Shown one piece after another: positions 3,351-49,745 of a DNA stretch of 64,000 nucleotides (the stretch's first letter is position 1; every line of letters starts with the position of its first letter). The notes under the pieces are model-generated. The model saw only the letters and a list, made by a program, of their open reading frames with translations. It was not told where the DNA came from and ran no database searches. Where the stretch lies: assembly GCA_035546335.1 (NCBI GenBank), contig DATKDP010000056.1, positions 120,577-184,576 on the forward strand. Direction: 5' to 3'. The stretch is from Thermoanaerobaculia bacterium (GTDB lineage Bacteria > Acidobacteriota > Thermoanaerobaculia > Gp7-AA8). Position numbers and translations under genes: made by a program.

Positions 3351-3354
3351 TCAA

Positions 3355-3440
3355 GCACCCGGACGAAGCTATTGCGCTGCGTTGCGGCATAGCAAGCCCT
3401 CGGCTCTGTCCCTCGCGCAAATGCTTCGTCCCTACGAAGA
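3355..3440 (+). repeat. about 86-bp inverted-repeat dispersed element (MITE/REP-like), copy 1
   Basis: Terminal IRs GCACCCGGACGAAGCTATTGCGCTGCG ... CGCGCAAATGCTTCGTCCCTACGA are near-perfect reverse complements. Four more copies lie at about 49394-49480, 49575-49662, 51860-51937 and 52029-52118. This copy sits between the convergent 3' ends of the Zn-ribbon ORF and the rhomboid-like gene. Confidence 0.8.
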
Positions 3441-3511
3441 GCACGGCAAGGGTGCTCTCGCCTCTCGCCTCTCGTCTCTCGCCTCTCAGGCGCTGGACGC
3501 CCGCTCTGGGT

Positions 3512-17558: not shown

Positions 17559-17626
17559 GGGTCGAATGCCTCCGACGATTCGCTGACGTTGCCGAGTCCT
17601 GAAAGCTGAGACAGAGCTGAGTCTAG

Positions 17627-17850
17627 GTGGCAGGCTCGGGGAAAGTCAACTCGGGGCTCGAGGCTCGAGGCTCGAGGCTCGAGGCTCGAGGCTCGGGGCT
17701 CGGGGCTCGGGGCTCGGGGCTCGGGGCTCGGGGCTCGGGGCTCGGGGCTCGAGGATTCCCACGACCTGGATTTCGAGCCTCTAGTCTCGAGCCTCTAGTC
17801 TCGAGCCTCTAGTCTCGAGCCTCTAGTCTCGAGCCTCTAGTCTCGAGGTG
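17627..17850. repeat. tandem heptamer array (GGCTCGA)5(GGCTCGG)8 followed by (TCGAGCCTCTAGTC)5, forming a long imperfect palindrome
   Basis: Direct reading of 17660-17752 and 17773-17848. The 14-mer contains TCGAGCC, the reverse complement of GGCTCGA. Short copies also lie at 49318-49340 and 49690-49715. The proS stop codon (TAG) lies inside the 14-mer array. Confidence 0.9.
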
Positions 17851-19554
17851 GGCAGCGACTTCCGCGGTCACCTCGCTGGGCGAGCTCATCCTCTTCTGCC
17901 GTCCGGCGCGGAGGCTCCACTCGACCTGTCCGTTGGCCAGGCTCCTGCTGCCGACGACGATGCGGATGGGAAACCCGATGAGATCGGCGTCCTTGAACTT
18001 CACGCCCGGCCGTTCATCACGATCATCGTAGATCACATCGATTCCGGCGCCGAGAAGCTGGTCGTAGATCTTCGAGGCGACATCGAGCACGGCCTCGTCG
18101 TTTCCGGCGGCGGTGACGACGACCTCGAACGGTGCAATCTGAACTGGCCAGACGATGCCGTCGTCGTCGTGACTCTGTTCGATCGCCGCGGCGACCGTGC
18201 GCCCGATTCCGAGCCCGTAGCAACCCATGACCATCGGCTGCCGTTCCCCGTTCTCGTCGAGAAAGACGCAGTTCATCTTCGACGAGTATTTGGTGCCGAG
18301 CTTGAAGACGTGACCGACCTCGATTCCTCGATGAATTTCCAGAGGAGCCCCGCAGGTGCAGCATGGATCTCCGGCCGCAACGAGCGTGAAATCGGAAAAA
18401 CTCGCGAGATCGATCGCGAAGTCACGTCCCGGTCGCGCTCCGCTGAGGTGCGTATTCTGCTTATTTCCGCCGACGATCCAGTTCGCGAACGATCGAAGGG
18501 ATTCGTCCGCGACGATCCGCAGTCCTTCCTTCGCGCGGACGGGACCGCAGTAGCCGACGGGCCCGCCCGTGACCTGCTGGAATCGTTCGTCGGGAAGCAT
18601 CTCCAGTGTCTGCACTCCGAGAAAGTTCCTGATCTTGATCTCGTTGGCTTCCCGATCGCCGCGAACGAGCACCATCACCGCCCCCTGCTCGGTGTCGAAT
18701 ACGAGCGTCTTCACGAGTCGGGAGGTGGGGATTCCGAGGAATCGGCCGACATCGTCGATCGTCTGCGTGCCGGGTGTCGCGATCTCGGTCAACTCTTCGG
18801 CCGGCTCTTCGCCGGCGGCATCCGGGCCGCGATGAAACGCCGAGACCGCCTTCTCGAGATTAGCGGCATAGCTGCAACCCGGGCAGCGCACGACCGCATC
18901 CTCACCCGACTGAGCGAGGACCATGAACTCGTGCGATGCGGAGCCGCCGATGTTTCCGGTGTCGGCCTCGACGGGCACGTGATCGAGACCGCAGCGCTCG
19001 AAGATGCGGCTGTAGGCGGTGCGCATTTTCTGGTAGGTCTCATCGAGCGAATCGACGCTCGTATGAAAGGAGTAGGCGTCCTTCATGATGAACTCTCGAC
19101 CGCGCATCAATCCGAACCGGGGGCGGATCTCGTCGCGGAATTTCGTCTGGATCTGATAGAGGTTGAGCGGCAGGCTGCGATAGGACGAGATCGCATCACG
19201 GACGGTCTCGGTGATCACTTCCTCGTGCGTGGGGCCGAAGACGAAGTCGCGGTCATGGCGGTCCTTGATTCGAAGCAGCTCTTTGCCGTACACCTGCCAT
19301 CGCCCGGACGCCATCCAGAGCTCGGCTGGCTGAATGGCGGGCATGAGCAGCTCGACCGCGCCCGCGCGGTTCATCTCCTCGCGAACGATCGCTTCGAGCT
19401 TTCGAATCGATCGGAGGCCGAGAGGGAGGTAGGTGTAGATGCCGGCGGCGACTTTGCGGATCATCCCGGCCCGCATCATCAGCTTCTGGCTGATCACATC
19501 GGCATCTGCGGGAACCTCCCGCAGCGTGTTGATGAAATATCGACTCCAGCGCAT
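17809..19554 (-). CDS. proS: prolyl-tRNA synthetase (bacterial type)
   Basis: MRWSRYFINTLREVPADADVISQKLMMRAGMIRK... class II aaRS motifs plus editing domain. The last about 10 codons (ETRGSRLEARD) are encoded by the 14-mer repeat. Confidence 0.9.
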   Translation of the reverse strand: MRWSRYFINTLREVPADADVISQKLMMRAGMIRKVAAGIYTYLPLGLRSIRKLEAIVREEMNRAGAVELLMPAIQPAELWMASGRWQVYGKELLRIKDRHDRDFVFGPTHEEVITETVRDAISSYRSLPLNLYQIQTKFRDEIRPRFGLMRGREFIMKDAYSFHTSVDSLDETYQKMRTAYSRIFERCGLDHVPVEADTGNIGGSASHEFMVLAQSGEDAVVRCPGCSYAANLEKAVSAFHRGPDAAGEEPAEELTEIATPGTQTIDDVGRFLGIPTSRLVKTLVFDTEQGAVMVLVRGDREANEIKIRNFLGVQTLEMLPDERFQQVTGGPVGYCGPVRAKEGLRIVADESLRSFANWIVGGNKQNTHLSGARPGRDFAIDLASFSDFTLVAAGDPCCTCGAPLEIHRGIEVGHVFKLGTKYSSKMNCVFLDENGERQPMVMGCYGLGIGRTVAAAIEQSHDDDGIVWPVQIAPFEVVVTAAGNDEAVLDVASKIYDQLLGAGIDVIYDDRDERPGVKFKDADLIGFPIRIVVGSRSLANGQVEWSLRAGRQKRMSSPSEVTAEVAAHLETRGSRLEARD

Positions 19555-35972: not shown

Positions 35973-36000
35973 CCGAAGGGGCGGAGGGAGTGCGGTGCAA

Positions 36001-36340
36001 CTCGTGGTGAGCGCGAAGCGCCACCACCGGTCACGGCACGACACGTCATGAAGTCGCGGCACCCCGAAGGGGTGAATGGAACACAGCCGGTGGTGAGCGC
36101 GAAGCGCCACCACCGGAACTGCGACGTTCCGCCGAAAGAACGCGGCACCCCGGAAGGGGTGCCCGGATCCCCTTACCAGAGGAATCGTGAATCGAACTCG
36201 AGTCCATTCGCTTCACCACCGGCTGTGTTCCGGGCACCCCTTCGGGGTGCGGGATGTGACGATGTGTTGTGCCCTGACCGGTGGTGGCGCTTCGCGCTCA
36301 CCACCGGCTGGAATCCCTGCACCCCTTCGGGGTGTCGTTG
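36001..36340. repeat. composite palindromic cluster of two alternating hairpin motifs (H1 CCGGTGGTGAGCGCGAAGCGCCACCACCGG; H2 GCACCCCGAAGGGGTGC)
   Basis: H1 at 36003-36030 and 36086-36115, reverse at 36278-36310. H2 at 36057-36075, 36143-36165, 36233-36255 and 36317-36338. Left-arm units are reverse complements of right-arm units around about 36190. Confidence 0.85.
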
Positions 36341-36381
36341 GCGCGAAATCTGAAGACTTTCGACTCCGAAGGAGCTGGGAC

Positions 36382-36680: not shown

Positions 36681-38063
36681 TCAGCGCGGCATGGCGGCAA
36701 ACACGAGAGTCTCGAGTACGACATCCACCGGCACTCCACCCGATTTTCTCAGGTAGTCGGCTTCGGCGATCTCCCGAAGGGCGCCGATCAGCTCGTCCTC
36801 GTGAAAGAAGCGCACAGCCTCGAACCGCTTGTGCAACGGAAAGGGATGCGGCTTCTGACGTACCAGCCTGCGACGCACGAGATACTCTCCCAGCGGCTCG
36901 GCGAGTCGATCGCGGAATTGGCTGTACGAGATCGCCTGCCGCGGATCGAGCTTCCGCACGCGGCAGAACGAATGGATCCCGAGAAGCTGACGGATCTCGT
37001 CTGCTAAAGCGAAAAGAAAGCGGCCGTAGTGACCCTCGTTCGTCGTTTTCGGATCATCGCGTCGCGCCTGCGCGATCAGATCGCGCAGCTTCTCCACCGC
37101 TTCGGCCGGCTTTCTGTCCGTGAAAAGAGCACCGAACTCGTAACGCGCACCGCCTGCCACGACAGACACCTGCGCCATGACCAGCTCCCGTGTCACTTCG
37201 GCGCCGGTGCCGGCATAGATCGCCAGTCTCTCCGCTTCGGCGATCGCAGGCCGGAGGTCGGGAACCTCCTTCGAATATTTGTCGCCGAGTGTGCGATCGA
37301 TTCCGAGCGCTCTTCGAAGCGCACTGACCGCTTCAGGCTGGAAGCTGACTCCATACTCCGCGGCAATCTCCTGCACGGCTTCATCCAGTACCGCGGCAAC
37401 GTCCTCACGGCGGAGATTGGCGATGACGACCGCACCGACGCGATCGATCAGTGCCACGCTGGCCGAATCCTTCGGCACTTCTCCCGCACGGAGCAAAAGG
37501 GTCGTGCCCGCGGCACCGCCCCCCCCGATCGCTTCGGCCAGCAGCGCCGCATCGCCTTCGCCTCTCGTTGCCTTCCTGCCGGATGCTCGCGCACTCTGAA
37601 GCATCTCGACCAGATCCTTCTCCGCGGTTCCCAGGCCGATCGCAGCAGCGATCCGACCGTCCGCCGAATCAGCATCGAGACCGACGAGGCCGAGAACATG
37701 AAGCAGCTTCGCCACCGAGGACGAGCGCTTTCGATCGGTCTTCGCGGTACGCCACCCCTCGACCGCCTTTTCGTAGAGCCGCACCAGCTCCTTGTTGGTC
37801 ACGAAGGCGTTCACTTCCGGAACGATGACGAGGCGCCTTCCGCCGAAGAGCGATCCGGTACGAAACGAATCGAGAACCGTCGCGAGATCGCTCGCCTCCC
37901 CCCAGCTCTCGACCTGAACCGCCGCGTCGCAGGCGAGAATGCGATCGCGAATGGCCGTGAATGCTCTCTCGACGGTGTAATCATTGTCACCTCCGACGAG
38001 AATCACCGGCGGGATGGAGCCGCGATCGATTTGCTCGAGCAGGGTAGAGAGAGAGAGAGGCAC
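36681..38063 (-). CDS. holA: DNA polymerase III delta subunit
   Basis: Delta N-terminal fold (ILVGGDNDYTVERAF...). Conserved synteny with nadD/rsfS/rlmH. Unusually long (460 aa) with a Gly/Ala-rich insert. GTG start. Confidence 0.65.
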   Translation of the reverse strand: MPLSLSTLLEQIDRGSIPPVILVGGDNDYTVERAFTAIRDRILACDAAVQVESWGEASDLATVLDSFRTGSLFGGRRLVIVPEVNAFVTNKELVRLYEKAVEGWRTAKTDRKRSSSVAKLLHVLGLVGLDADSADGRIAAAIGLGTAEKDLVEMLQSARASGRKATRGEGDAALLAEAIGGGGAAGTTLLLRAGEVPKDSASVALIDRVGAVVIANLRREDVAAVLDEAVQEIAAEYGVSFQPEAVSALRRALGIDRTLGDKYSKEVPDLRPAIAEAERLAIYAGTGAEVTRELVMAQVSVVAGGARYEFGALFTDRKPAEAVEKLRDLIAQARRDDPKTTNEGHYGRFLFALADEIRQLLGIHSFCRVRKLDPRQAISYSQFRDRLAEPLGEYLVRRRLVRQKPHPFPLHKRFEAVRFFHEDELIGALREIAEADYLRKSGGVPVDVVLETLVFAAMPR

Positions 38064-38084
38064 GGGGGGAGAGTATAGGGGATG

Positions 38085-38280
38085 AGAGTAGAGGGCAGAT
38101 AGCAGAGGGCAGAGGGCAGATAGCAGAGGGCAGATGGCAGATGGCAGATGGCAGATGGCAGAGAGCAGATAGCAGAGAGAGGGCGTGGAAGGCGGTCGGG
38201 AGGGGGAACGCAGACGGCAGATGCGAAGCGCGCATCTTCCGTCTGCTATCTGCTATTTGCTATCTGCTCTATCCGCTCTC
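38085..38280. repeat. tandem octamer array (GGCAGATR/GCAGAGG) plus inverted partner array (CTGCTATCT) forming a large imperfect palindrome with a central 15-bp stem
   Basis: 38091-38180 (GGCAGATG x4 perfect). 38211-38245 hairpin CAGACGGCAGATGCG-aag-CGCATCTTCCGTCTG. 38246-38280 is the reverse-complement array. Confidence 0.9.
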
Positions 38281-38647
38281 AAAGAAGTCCCTGCTCTTCG
38301 AGCTCCTGACAATCGATGCAATGGCGCGTCCAGGGGACCGCTTTCAGCCGCTTTTCATTGATCACCTGGCCGCAGTTGATGCAGATGCCGAACGCGTTTT
38401 CGTCGATTCTCCTCAGCGCTTCGTCGACCAGCACGAGAATCTCGCGCTCGGCGTCAGAGAGTGAGAAGTTCAACTCCTTCGAGTAGGCGCTCGCCGCCTT
38501 GTCCGCCAGATCCTGGATGCCGTCATCCGGCTGAGCATTGCCTGCAGCCATGTCGCGAGCATAGGAATCGTTCAGCTCCGACTGCTTTCTGAGCAGGAGC
38601 TCGCGATACTGTTCGAACTGACTCGCTTTTGTCTTGGTTCTTGCCAT
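38279..38647 (-). CDS. DksA/TraR-family C4 zinc-finger protein
   Basis: CINCGQVINEKRLKAVPWTRHCIDCQ. Confidence 0.8.
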   Translation of the reverse strand: MARTKTKASQFEQYRELLLRKQSELNDSYARDMAAGNAQPDDGIQDLADKAASAYSKELNFSLSDAEREILVLVDEALRRIDENAFGICINCGQVINEKRLKAVPWTRHCIDCQELEEQGLL

Positions 38648-38662
38648 GCGCCCCGGTTCTCC

Positions 38663-39133
38663 TTACTTGTGGTAGCGAATGTTCCGCATCAGCGTACACG
38701 CCCGATAAATCTGCTCGATCAGGACCAGCCTCGCAATCTGATGCGGCAGCGTCATCGCCGAAAGGGAAAGGATCCTGTCGGCACGGCTTCGTATTGCATC
38801 ATCGAGGCCGACATCGCCGCCCATGACGAAGTGGATTCCATCCGGACTCTGCGACGAGATCCTTTCGAGCCACTTCGCGAATTTCAAAGAATCGATCGAC
38901 TCCCCCCGCTCGTCCACGACCACGGTAATGCCGCGCGCTGGGATCGCTGCAATCAGCCTTGCCGAATCGGCGCGTATGATAGCGGCATCCTTCTTTTTCT
39001 GTCTATCTTTTTCGGCTGCAACTTCAATGATCTCGATCGGAAAGAATCGCCCGATCCGCTCCCTGTACCGCTCGATCGCCGCGCCGAGCTGAGCGTCAGC
39101 ATTGGAACCGATCCAAATCAGGCGAAATTTCAT
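38663..39133 (-). CDS. rlmH: 23S rRNA (pseudouridine1915-N3)-methyltransferase
   Basis: SPOUT fold, 156 aa, MKFRLIWIG...GGDVGLD...LSLSAMTLPHQIARLVLIEQIYRA. Confidence 0.85.
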   Translation of the reverse strand: MKFRLIWIGSNADAQLGAAIERYRERIGRFFPIEIIEVAAEKDRQKKKDAAIIRADSARLIAAIPARGITVVVDERGESIDSLKFAKWLERISSQSPDGIHFVMGGDVGLDDAIRSRADRILSLSAMTLPHQIARLVLIEQIYRACTLMRNIRYHK

Positions 39134-39211
39134 CGTCGAGCCGATCCCGAAGCGCCTGAAATCAGGGTACCGATCGTCACGCTTCGACCCCCACGACCGC
39201 CGTTTTCGAGC

Positions 39212-49299: not shown

Positions 49300-49745
49300 G
49301 CCCGGCGTCGAGTAGCGAGGCTCGGGGCTCGAGGCTCGAATGGCAACCGGTCTTTGGCCGCGTCGATGGTTCTCAGGAAACCCCGTCGAATTCTCGTAGG
49401 GGCGAAGCATTTGCGCGCAGGCCGCAGCGACAGGCTCGCGTTACCGGAGCGCAGCGCAATAGCTTCGCCCGGGTGCTTGCGAGAATGTGACATGGCGGTG
49501 GGTCGATTCGCGCCGCCCTGCAACCCGGGGCGGCGCGGGACGCCCGCTCTCCCGCAGAGGTTCGTTCGATCATCGCAAGCACCCGGACGAAGCTATTGCT
49601 CTCCGTTACGGCGTTGCAAGCCCGCCGCTCTGTCCATCGCGCAAATGCTTCGTCCCTACGAGGGCCGCCCGTCGATGTTCCGGAAGCCCCCCTCGAGCCT
49701 CGAGTCTCCAGCCTCCCCCCCGCGCATCTCCGCTACAATCGATGG
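49300..49745. repeat. composite repeat cluster: heptamer fragment, MITE-like copy (reverse), GC hairpin, MITE-like copy (forward), heptamer fragment
   Basis: 49318-49340 GGCTCGGGGCTCGAGGCTCGA. 49394-49480 element copy 2 (reverse). 49527-49553 GGGGCGGCGCGGGACGCCCGCTCTCCC. 49575-49662 element copy 3. 49690-49715 CCTCGAGCCTCGAG. Confidence 0.85.

Follow-up and report, generated by a model that had tools for sequence, protein, structure and literature searches.

The DNA analyzed here, hereafter the window, is a stretch of 64,000 nucleotides (nt) from a Thermoanaerobaculia bacterium of the Acidobacteriota (assembly GCA_035546335.1, contig DATKDP010000056.1, positions 120,577 to 184,576). Near 38 kb its minus strand carries a dksA-like gene followed by a holA-like gene, and the 215-nt spacer between the two is occupied by an inverted pair of 7-nt tandem repeats, which is the subject of this report. 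A preliminary description of the locus had placed the dksA-like stop at 38279 and the holA GTG start at 38063, both on the minus strand, and the gene assignments and the start alignment agree with these positions. Read along the sense strand of the genes, and with tandem arrays located by Tandem Repeats Finder (TRF), the locus comprises the following features.

38279..38647, minus strand: dksA/traR-family C4 zinc-finger gene, 122 amino acids (PF01258, E=2.6e-13).
38247..38278: short arm, about 4.5 further inverted units, TATCTGC TATTTGC TATCTGC and then degenerate TCTATCCGCTC (TRF, inverted-pair search).
38210..38246: central hairpin, arms 38210-38225 and 38231-38246, loop 38226-38230 (inverted-repeat search, RNA and DNA folds).
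38179..38209: non-repeat insert of 31 nt between the long arm and the hairpin, G-rich on the plus strand (sequence, purine scan).
38095..38178: long arm, the C-rich CATCTGC-type 3' arm on the gene-sense (minus) strand (TRF, register parse, pattern count).
38064..38094, minus strand: pyrimidine-rich leader of 31 nt between the long arm and the holA GTG (sequence composition).
36681..38063, minus strand: holA-like gene (DNA polymerase III delta), 460 amino acids (TIGR01128, 80 bits at the 80-bit cutoff).

TRF reported the long arm as a period-7 array at 38090-38176 (12.4 copies, 85% matches, score 111) and the short arm as TCTGCTA x3.9 at 38242-38268, degenerate onward to 38278, so that the direct array and the reverse-complement partner proposed earlier were both recovered. 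The octameric unit (GGCAGATR) proposed with them was not. The actual unit has 7 nt, and at 38095-38178 the plus strand holds 12 in-register units of the form GCAGANN, which end, in order, in ATA, AGG, AGG, ATA, AGG, ATG (four times), AGA, ATA, and AGA. The four perfect copies attributed to GGCAGATG do exist, but as copies of the heptamer GCAGATG, at 38130-38157. The pattern GCAGANNGCAGANNGCAGA, with at most one mismatch allowed, gave 14 matches, all of them in 38088-38267, against an expectation of 0.00 from 100 shuffles; the locus contains a heptamer tandem array longer than chance would produce. The long arm was also reported by TRF at period 21 (x4.2), and we read this 21-nt super-period and the perfect GCAGATG x4 block as recent one-sided expansions.

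On the sense strand the short arm becomes the G-rich 5' arm (GCAGATA-type) and directly adjoins the stop codon of the dksA-like gene (38281..38279). From there the sequence runs TGA, GA GCGGATA GA GCAGATA GCAAATA GCAGATA GCAGACG GAAGATG, the loop cgcgcttcg, CATCTGC CGTCTGC, and the 31-nt insert, here C-rich, followed by 12 CTGCNNT/CATCTGC-type units, the 31-nt pyrimidine leader, and the GTG of holA. The central hairpin has 16-nt arms, complementary at 15 of 16 positions (94%), and a 5-nt loop. Because its arms are themselves built of heptamer units (GCAGACG GCAGATG / CATCTTC CGTCTGC on the plus strand), it is the apex of the inverted pair rather than a separate element; the hairpin described earlier, with a 15-bp stem at 38211-38245, is thus real, with slightly longer arms (38210-38246) and a different standing. 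The two arms are unequal, with about 14 units in the long arm and about 6.5 in the short one, and the insert at 38179-38209 breaks the long arm. Alignments of the outer arms were 73-79% complementary over 44-47 nt, with 58-121 nt between the aligned segments. A cruciform calls for near-perfect arms and a short spacer, which the central 16-bp arms provide and the outer arms, with their long spacers, do not. Of the large cruciform-capable palindrome that had been proposed, the inverted pair and its near-perfect 16-bp hairpin therefore remain, flanked by imperfectly complementary outer arms of unequal length.

Repeats are prone to assembly error, and the array could in principle be an artefact of collapsed, duplicated, or chimeric reads. 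An independent contig from the Logan collection (L001, from SRR8556377, 1.8 kb), the sole Logan contig found to encode the identical dksA-like protein, ends within the perfect block, at window position 38141. Over 38141-38281 and beyond, however, L001 equals the window base for base; the agreement takes in the dksA-like gene, the short arm with the hairpin and the insert, and the first three CATCTGC units. Exact periodicity extends over about 34 nt at most, which is less than a read, and the variant units serve as unique anchors for the order of the array. Moreover, orthologous pairs are present in more than 30 independently assembled genomes, including the complete chromosomes OY970284.1 and OY970380.1. 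Misassembly, named in the preliminary description as a possible undoing of the structure, is thus excluded as far as the data allow, since L001 reproduces most of the structure and dozens of genomes hold equivalents; we regard an artefact as extremely improbable. The end of L001 lies 17 nt into the perfect GCAGATG block, where the window sequence contains no repeated 31-mer; the cause could be heterogeneity of copy number, or low coverage, in that sample. No other record of the exact holA product was found, and the unique 22-mer CATCTGCCGTCTGCGTTCCCCC was absent from metagenome contigs.

To compare the locus with its counterparts in relatives, 80 related loci were collected, each with flanks of as much as 10 kb; the window and L001 were added to them, and the resulting 1.29 Mb was searched with TRF. 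The nearest holA homologues are 58-60% identical and come from metagenome-assembled genomes of Thermoanaerobaculia (Acidobacteriota). The dksA-holA spacer was compared over the 260 nt upstream of holA in all fetched loci and occurs in three states. Some relatives have an operon layout without an array, with 0-20 nt between the dksA stop and the holA start. In a second state the spacer contains a canonical terminator-like hairpin, GGGAGCGC-ttcg-GCGCTCCC-TTTT, with the holA start within about 10 nt. In the third, a terminator is followed by a heptamer array of 4-6 units, a spacer, an inverted array of 4-6 units, 2-36 nt, and an ATG.

The units of these arrays vary by species, and every time the partner arm co-varies. 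The 5' and 3' arm units found in this spacer are the following pairs.

GAATGCA with TGCATTC
GAAGGCA with TGCCTTC
AAATGCA with TGCATTT
GAATGTT with AACATTC
GAATTCA with TGAATTC
GAATTGA with TCAATTC
TTTTGGA with TCCAAAA

Many relatives' units, when rotated, are one or two changes from GCAGAAT and resemble the GCAGATR of the window, and one relative (L057) carries 9-mers, CGCAGATGA/CATCTGCGT, in the same spacer. The window's GCAGATG is plausibly homologous to the CGCAGATGA 9-mers and to the GCAGAAT/GCAGAAG units, although convergence fits equally well at 53% holA identity. Unit families agree only in part with the clades of the holA tree. AATGTTG is carried by three species whose holA is 98% identical, at copy numbers of 5.6/4.6, 5.6/5.9, and 5.6/6.0 in the two arms. 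From the tree and the copy numbers, pairs are therefore inherited over moderate distances, are quickly resized, and are often lost or replaced.

Other fillers of the same spacer were seen in L007 (9918-9993), L010, L018, L025, L015, L020, and L068; they include 21-nt GGGCTTCAGCCCGTCCAGCGT repeats, TAGGACGGGCTTCAGCCCGTCC hairpins, and inverted repeats of about 30 nt. The spacer upstream of rlmH, in turn, is filled from stop to start by heptamer pairs with quite different units in five relatives (L006 8900-8967, L022 8901-9006, L042 9018-9092, L074 7261-7380, and L035 8810-8939), the stop codon often lying within the first unit. The corresponding rlmH spacer of the window (39134-39211, 78 nt) has no array.

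We then counted tandem arrays across the whole 1.29 Mb. Gene boundaries were set by an ad hoc codon-usage caller, which called 82% of the sequence coding and 18% non-coding, and two arrays were taken as an inverted pair when their units were reverse complementary, with at most one mismatch, within 200 nt. Period 7 was the commonest tandem period (144 of 534 TRF rows). Of 142 period-7 arrays, 104 lay in sequence called non-coding, as opposed to 19 arrays of period 8, 19 of period 9, 4 of period 10, and none of periods 4 to 6. The window alone contains five arrays of period 7 and at most one for any other period from 4 to 13. Thus, in the window and its relatives alike, intergenic period-7 arrays exceed those of other non-triplet periods. 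Eighty-nine of the 142 arrays formed 46 inverted pairs and 21 more had a weaker partner, while only one adjacent pair in direct orientation was found. The size of arrays in pairs was narrow, typically 4-6 units. The overall density was about 110 arrays per Mb; long loci had a median of 94 per Mb, and the L035 stretch of the complete 6.6-Mb chromosome OY970284.1 reached 421 per Mb.

The units were diverse, with 70 distinct ones among 145 arrays, most of them without G-tracts. Some recur at non-orthologous sites of one genome: L035 has CGGTTGT at three sites, the window has GGCTCGR twice, and in several species AAGGCAG is found at more than one site. Units specific to a single locus in the strict sense were thereby ruled out. 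The earlier remark that the genome tolerates or exploits such repeats accordingly holds across the lineage (142 arrays in the relatives' 1.29 Mb, 89 of them paired), and the contrary outcome, an absence of related arrays elsewhere, was not observed, arrays being abundant in the window and in the relatives.

The pairs have a handedness. In 43 of the 46 pairs of the relatives, the left arm contained more G than C and the right arm more C than G; the opposite arrangement was never found, and the A/T skew of the arms was unbiased (21 versus 22). Since G-rich-5'/C-rich-3' reads the same on both strands, the handedness is independent of the orientation of the locus. All three pairs of the window, at 38 kb and at 17.6 and 49.3 kb (described below), likewise have the G-rich arm 5' and the C-rich arm 3'; these are convergent pairs, with the G-rich strands pointing inward, as in Xanthomonas and Nostoc. 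Generic perfect hairpins in the same intergenic DNA were divided 128:90 (59:41), and those in coding DNA 120:129, which rules out handedness as a general trait of intergenic hairpins. As an independent sample we used unrelated metagenome contigs with GCAGATG x3 (37-71% G+C; at least 120 matches, 80 of which were read), and among the matches listed the CATCTGC partner lay 3' of the G-rich arm in 16 cases and on the 5' side in one.

Handedness has a counterpart in position relative to genes. Arrays next to stop codons were G-rich on the sense strand (38:9), and arrays next to start codons were C-rich on it (39:10). A pair typically begins within a few nucleotides of a stop codon or a terminator and leaves 2-25 nt up to the next start. 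The upstream stop codon often marks the beginning of the G-rich arm or lies within it (gagTAGccagTAGccag; attgatTAGgccTTAGGCC), and a few nucleotides separate the end of the C-rich arm from the ATG. Among distinct arm units, ATG, GTG, or TTG was present in 1 of 44 3' arms and 22 of 44 5' arms, and stop triplets in 17 of 44 5' arms versus 6 of 44 3' arms. It follows from the handedness that start triplets are nearly absent from the arm that precedes start codons. Pairs were not enriched in co-directional spacers over the baseline (85% versus 81%). Taken together, the locus very probably belongs to a class of paired, inverted heptamers that occupies stop-to-start spacers across the lineage and has its origin in slippage.

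Strand-symmetric handedness is what one would expect of a property of the duplex, and the array might act through non-B DNA, namely, a cruciform, H-DNA or a triplex in the 160-nt polypurine-polypyrimidine tract, or a G-quadruplex on the G-rich strand, with effects on replication, supercoiling, or transcription. The most purine-rich 140-nt stretch of the window begins at 38041 (81% purine on the plus strand), and runs of more than 75% purine reach 38236, the insert at 38179-38209 included. The DNA of the spacer folds with a z score of -5.4 against shuffles, nine GGGGCTC copies at 17.6 kb form a textbook G-quadruplex motif, and the Xanthomonas and Nostoc units form G-quadruplexes in vitro. The 38-kb array itself, however, contains only four GGG tracts, 4-12 nt apart (three in-register GCAGAGG units and the partial unit at 38090-38094); its GCAGATG, GCAGATA, and GCAGAGA units have no run of three guanines, so a G-tract of at least three per unit is not a property of this array. 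GCAGATG and most relatives' units (GAATGTT, GAATGCA, GGTTGTC) are likewise devoid of G-tracts, and G-quadruplexes therefore provide no general explanation, while the 73-79% complementarity of the outer arms and their long spacers disfavor cruciform extrusion. We consider a role of this kind improbable.

Within the class to which we assign the locus, the following sequence of events would account for the observations. Arrays would arise and be resized in situ by replication slippage in a 7-nt register, as argued by the perfect one-sided block, the drift in copy number, and the units that begin with the local stop codon. Selection, hairpin-templated correction (template switching), or the two together would keep the arms complementary. 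The spacer would be co-transcribed with dksA and holA, given the operon layout of array-less relatives and the fact that no promoter or canonical terminator was found here. The arms could then pair, in RNA or in single-stranded DNA, into a long imperfect stem-loop bridging the dksA stop and the holA start. Such a stem-loop may be a structural element between the cistrons, whose effect would be to lower the output of holA modestly, or to insulate it, relative to dksA, and not to switch holA on and off. Handedness would be maintained by way of a start-codon-free, C-rich stretch before starts and a stretch richer in stop triplets after stops. Taken as a whole, from class membership and slippage through arm correction and tuning by an RNA stem-loop to the upkeep of handedness, this explanation is, in our judgment, somewhat more probable than its failure. 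The functional step within it, a co-transcribed stem-loop that tunes holA, is inferred and may hold, at rather less than an even chance.

Folding of the locus was consistent with a stem-loop: the minus-strand RNA of 38050-38290 has a minimum free energy of -68.4 kcal/mol and a z score of -4.6 against shuffles. Several observations weigh against the explanation given above. A test for selection on the sense-strand RNA was negative, the antisense strand folding slightly better in 27 versus 16 of the 43 relatives' pairs (p=0.08); G-U pairs numbered 111 in the antisense and 75 in the sense strands of these pairs, and in the window the antisense folds at -74.5 versus -55.6 kcal/mol for the sense. 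Being degenerate and lopsided, the window copy has a weak stem compared with those of the relatives (median of about 39 bp paired, -60 kcal/mol). Between the two arms there is no correlation in copy number (Spearman 0.03). Presence is patchy, and on the holA tree species that have an array are intermixed with species that do not. Many relatives have a canonical terminator after dksA and ahead of the pair, which, if efficient, would leave no co-transcription from upstream. Finally, gene calls were approximate and orthologous sites are not independent, so that p-values are optimistic and the ratios reported here are strong trends rather than exact probabilities.

Several of these points would be expected if the pairs had no function at all, being by-products of a 7-nt slippage bias and of fold-back or template-switch copying in tolerant spacers, from which purifying selection removes harmful configurations such as start codons before genes. 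The units are arbitrary, as their diversity attests; presence and absence among relatives are patchy; no sense-strand RNA signature was found; the neighbors include genes of every kind; copy number has drifted among species that are nearly identical; and the window copy is decaying and lopsided. For the Xanthomonas repeats, likewise, no role has been found (Rehm et al. 2015, PMC4692102). Against this, the handedness (43:0 in the relatives, 16:1 in the metagenome contigs), the 4-6-unit size, and a complementarity kept through the turnover of units at one orthologous site need either an intrinsically chiral mechanism or selection. These three features only show that some constraint acts, however, and are compatible with by-products too. 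Because the sense strand folds no better than the antisense strand, by-products remain a strong alternative, though we still think it rather unlikely that they are the whole account.

Expression signals were sought around the pair. A scan of 37900-38800 found no sigma-70-like promoter and no canonical terminator, inspection by eye found no sigma-54 -24/-12 motif in the spacer, and the leader at 38064-38094 contains no Shine-Dalgarno-like sequence. After the hairpin the sense strand continues with GUUCCCCCUCCC, without the U/T tract of a Rho-independent terminator. The 146-nt leader from 38209 to 38064 consists, on the sense strand, of 73 C, 44 T, 16 G, and 13 A, and none of ATG, GTG, or TTG occurs in it, as was also the case in 5.9% of shuffles. 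Rfam gave no match at the gathering threshold and no tRNA gene was detected in the whole 64-kb window, which leaves no known RNA family and no tRNA or transfer-messenger RNA there. The preliminary description had spoken of promoter regions. The findings do not bear this wording out: the 38-kb and 17.6-kb pairs both lie in co-directional stop-to-start spacers, no promoter was found in 37900-38800, and array-less relatives have an operon layout.

The same evidence bears on the possibility that gain or loss of heptamers alters spacing in a promoter or 5' untranslated region and so switches holA, as short repeats do in pathogens. The GCAGATG x4 block is slippage-prone, as is a (CT)7 run at the start of holA, and the end of L001 inside the perfect block could mean copy-number heterogeneity. 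Yet holA encodes a core replisome subunit, part of the clamp loader, and not a surface or restriction-modification protein; neither it nor the dksA-like gene belongs to the surface, restriction-modification, or virulence genes that form the usual context of contingency repeats. No promoter was detected in the spacer, and heptamers flank housekeeping genes (proS, rlmH, and the fadL-like gene) with a period of 7 whatever the context. In Xanthomonas as well the conclusion was negative (Rehm et al. 2015, PMC4692102). A phase switch is quite improbable.

The regular 7-nt spacing also recalls a binding array, that is, an operator, a set of iterons, or an RNA platform for a sequence-specific protein, for instance, a HutP-like one acting on UAGCAAAUAGCAGAUAG in the 5' arm. 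The HutP-type motif is UAG-N4-UAG-N4-UAG, and UAG recurs every 7 nt in the 5' arm of the window and in several relatives' units (AGTAGCC, TTAGGCC, AGTAGAC). Units vary by site and species, though, and many contain no UAG; a 7-bp period is out of step with the helical repeat of DNA; and the inverted partner and the handedness would be left unexplained. A binding array is thus very improbable, and the HutP-like UAG-N4 platform in particular was rejected on the diversity of units. Three other candidates were rejected: a CRISPR array, because there are no spacers; a miniature inverted-repeat transposable element, because there are neither terminal repeats nor a shared body; and a DnaA/iteron-type origin, because the cumulative GC skew is monotonic across the window. 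We read the locus as neither a misassembly, nor a sequence-specific operator, nor a phase switch of holA.

The other heptamer arrays of the window are as follows.

17650..17751: 17.6-kb locus, C-rich 3' arm on the sense (minus) strand, CTCGGGG/CTCGAGG x14.6, G-rich on the plus strand.
17773..17847: 17.6-kb locus, partner arm, (TCGAGCCTCTAGTC) x5.4, in which the alternate heptamer CGAGCCT complements AGGCTCG.
49316..49339: 49.3-kb locus, G-rich arm, CGAGGCT x3.4, the GGCTCGR unit as at 17.6 kb.
49691..49715: 49.3-kb locus, C-rich partner, CCTCGAG x3.6, separated from the other arm by a loop of about 350 nt.
3455..3487: single array, CTCTCGC x4.7, G-rich on the sense strand, 25 nt past the stop of a minus-strand rhomboid gene (3512).

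At least three different units (GCAGANN, GGCTCGR, and GCGAGAG) are thus present in the 64-kb window, which does not have one consensus unit. The arm at 17650-17751 lies 92 nt upstream of the ATG of a fadL/todX-like gene (17558), and in sense order the locus reads proS, (GACTAGAGGCTCGA) x5, spacer, (CCCCGAG/CCTCGAG) x14.6, 92 nt, and the fadL-like ATG. The similarity in design between the 38-kb and 17.6-kb loci that had been noted earlier is confirmed, inverted heptamer arms occupying a stop-to-start spacer at both. The minus-strand RNA of 17560-17860 folds at -142.6 kcal/mol (z -5.5). The array at 3455-3487 follows the rule for gene boundaries, being G-rich on the sense strand after a stop.

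At 17650-17751, nine of the 14.6 heptamers are GGGGCTC, eight of them consecutive, which makes a canonical G-quadruplex motif with 3-nt loops; the motif is on the plus strand, the template strand of the flanking genes, and the 38-kb array is not such a motif. The last 12 codons of proS (LETRGSRLEARD) and its stop (17811..17809) are encoded by the 14-mer repeat, over 17809-17847, so the C terminus of proS has been either extended or replaced by the array. Arrays that overlap stop codons can therefore, as at proS, add repeat-encoded tails to open reading frames (ORFs), a point to be borne in mind in annotation.

A dispersed element of about 88 nt (CAAGCACCCGGRCGAAGCTATTGC...CGCGCAAATGCTTCGYCCCTACGA) was found at 3353-3440, 49395-49480 (minus strand), and 49576-49660. 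It is hairpin-like, its three copies have a mean column identity of 81%, and it has no Rfam match at the gathering threshold. Every copy adjoins a heptamer array, and two inverted copies lie inside the loop between 49316 and 49691. The spacer downstream of bamA (35973-36378) contains the palindrome GGTGGTGAGCGCGAAGCGCCACCACCGG at 36003-36030 and 36089-36116 on the plus strand and at 36278-36305 on the minus strand (3 matches versus 0 expected), together with several CACCCC-loop-GGGGTG hairpins nearby. This cluster at 36003-36305 resembles repetitive extragenic palindromic (REP) elements and is distinct from the heptamer class.

As for the flanking genes, the dksA-like protein scores under the cutoffs of the NCBIfam DksA equivalogs. 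The holA-like protein matches the delta subunit 3zh9_B in the PDB (E=3.5e-8), and its GTG start at 38063 agrees with an alignment of 20 homologues, all of which begin MPxxL. Throughout the lineage the protein has about 460 amino acids, some 110-145 more than the 316 positions of the TIGR01128 profile and the 347 amino acids of 3zh9_B; it barely reaches the TIGR01128 cutoff, and its match to the Pfam C-terminal domain is below threshold. A GA-dinucleotide run had been described as extending into the first holA codons, and (AG)7 on the plus strand at 38046-38059, or (CT)7 on the sense strand, indeed falls in codons 2-6 (PLSLS). The run is absent from the 20 aligned homologues, and a 2-nt slip in it would frameshift holA, a core replisome gene.

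The dksA-holA spacer constitutes a natural comparative series, in which the unit changes between species and complementarity, size, and handedness stay constant. The series separates what is constrained (the period, the pairing, the G-to-C polarity, and the lack of start codons before genes) from what is not (the sequence and the G-tracts), and it makes directly testable predictions for swapping the arms or deleting one of them. Going further, one may speculate, with little expectation that all of it holds, that such "heptad hairpins" are a distinct, widespread class of bacterial intergenic element, set by the 7-nt period, inverted pairing, and handedness rather than by sequence, whose genome-specific unit families are spread to non-orthologous spacers by a dedicated and intrinsically chiral mechanism and which act as operon punctuation. 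Candidate routes of spread are fold-back priming by G-rich nascent strands and other templated synthesis, as opposed to ordinary slippage. Were this true, elements lying from stop to start would set the relative expression of cistrons, here a low output of holA after dksA, and the G-quadruplex reading of the Xanthomonas and Nostoc repeats would not be general.

Among known systems, the closest are the GGGAATC arrays of Xanthomonas, of which there are about 185 per genome, 89-93% of them intergenic, with four units as the commonest size and 70-75 "convergent" inverted pairs (Rehm et al. 2015, PMC4692102). In the 50 bp after stops their G-rich strand is coding, and in the 50 bp before starts it is non-coding; repeat length varies among species while the type of pair is preserved, and no role was identified, although the repeats were interpreted through the formation of G-quadruplexes (Rehm et al. 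2015, PMC4692102). The arrays analyzed here share with these, and with the GGGGAYT arrays of Nostoc, the 7-nt unit, a size of about 4 units, and a location that is about 90% intergenic and mostly between co-directional ORFs. They also share with Xanthomonas the inverted pairs (46 among 142 arrays here, 70-75 among about 185 there) and a G-rich strand that is coding after stops and non-coding before starts (38:9 and 39:10 here), as well as copy numbers that change among related species without a change in the kind of pair. Xanthomonas has one genome-wide unit with a G-tract, whereas in these Acidobacteriota there are many unit families, mostly without G-tracts; the window copy, at about 14 versus about 6.5 units, is also much more lopsided than the Xanthomonas pairs. 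The diversity of the units and their general lack of G-tracts argue against a G-quadruplex, and against a sequence-specific binder, as the feature common to all of them.

TAACTGA repeats, found in marine Beggiatoaceae, cyanobacteria, and Bacteroidetes, lie a few nucleotides upstream of the starts of unrelated, often essential genes; a post-transcriptional role has been proposed for them and horizontal spread is suspected (MacGregor 2015, PMC4679880). The arrays described here resemble them in being heptamers just upstream of start codons. They differ in that TAACTGA is a single conserved unit in direct arrays of 2-6 copies, with an inverted partner in 1 of 170 cases.

REP elements, bacterial interspersed mosaic elements (BIMEs), and REPINs are also intergenic and hairpin-forming, and often lie within operons from stop to start. 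REPs have a conserved consensus of 20-40 nt and are mobilized by RAYT transposases. The heptamer pairs, unlike REPs, share only the 7-nt period and the handedness, and neither loops nor units are conserved between pairs. Roles proposed for these elements include mRNA stabilization, termination, and insulation (see PMC3733652).

The heptamer pairs may further be set beside two processes that shape repeats. Template-switch mutagenesis at quasipalindromes corrects imperfect inverted repeats toward complementarity and has been studied as point mutagenesis. It would explain the co-varying arms without selection, but accounts for neither the handedness nor the period of 7 nt. Among the long simple-sequence repeats of bacteria, heptamers form the most abundant class; their origin has been put down to slippage of the polymerase in a register of about 7 nt, and they are enriched in the large, high-G+C genomes of free-living bacteria, where several unit families per genome are possible (Mrazek et al. 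2007, as cited in PMC4679880 and PMC4692102). As far as those citing papers describe them, such long repeats, and the short tandemly repeated repetitive (STRR) sequences of cyanobacteria, are direct arrays, unlike the arrays described here, which are distinguished by inverted pairing, strict handedness, and conservation at orthologous sites. In the diversity of their units the latter are nearer to the cyanobacterial STRR families than to a single consensus.

In the literature searched, no account of such arrays in Acidobacteria or Thermoanaerobaculia turned up. Intergenic heptamer repeats in convergent inverted pairs are thus known already; what is new here is their occurrence in Acidobacteriota as multiple unit families, mostly without G-tracts.

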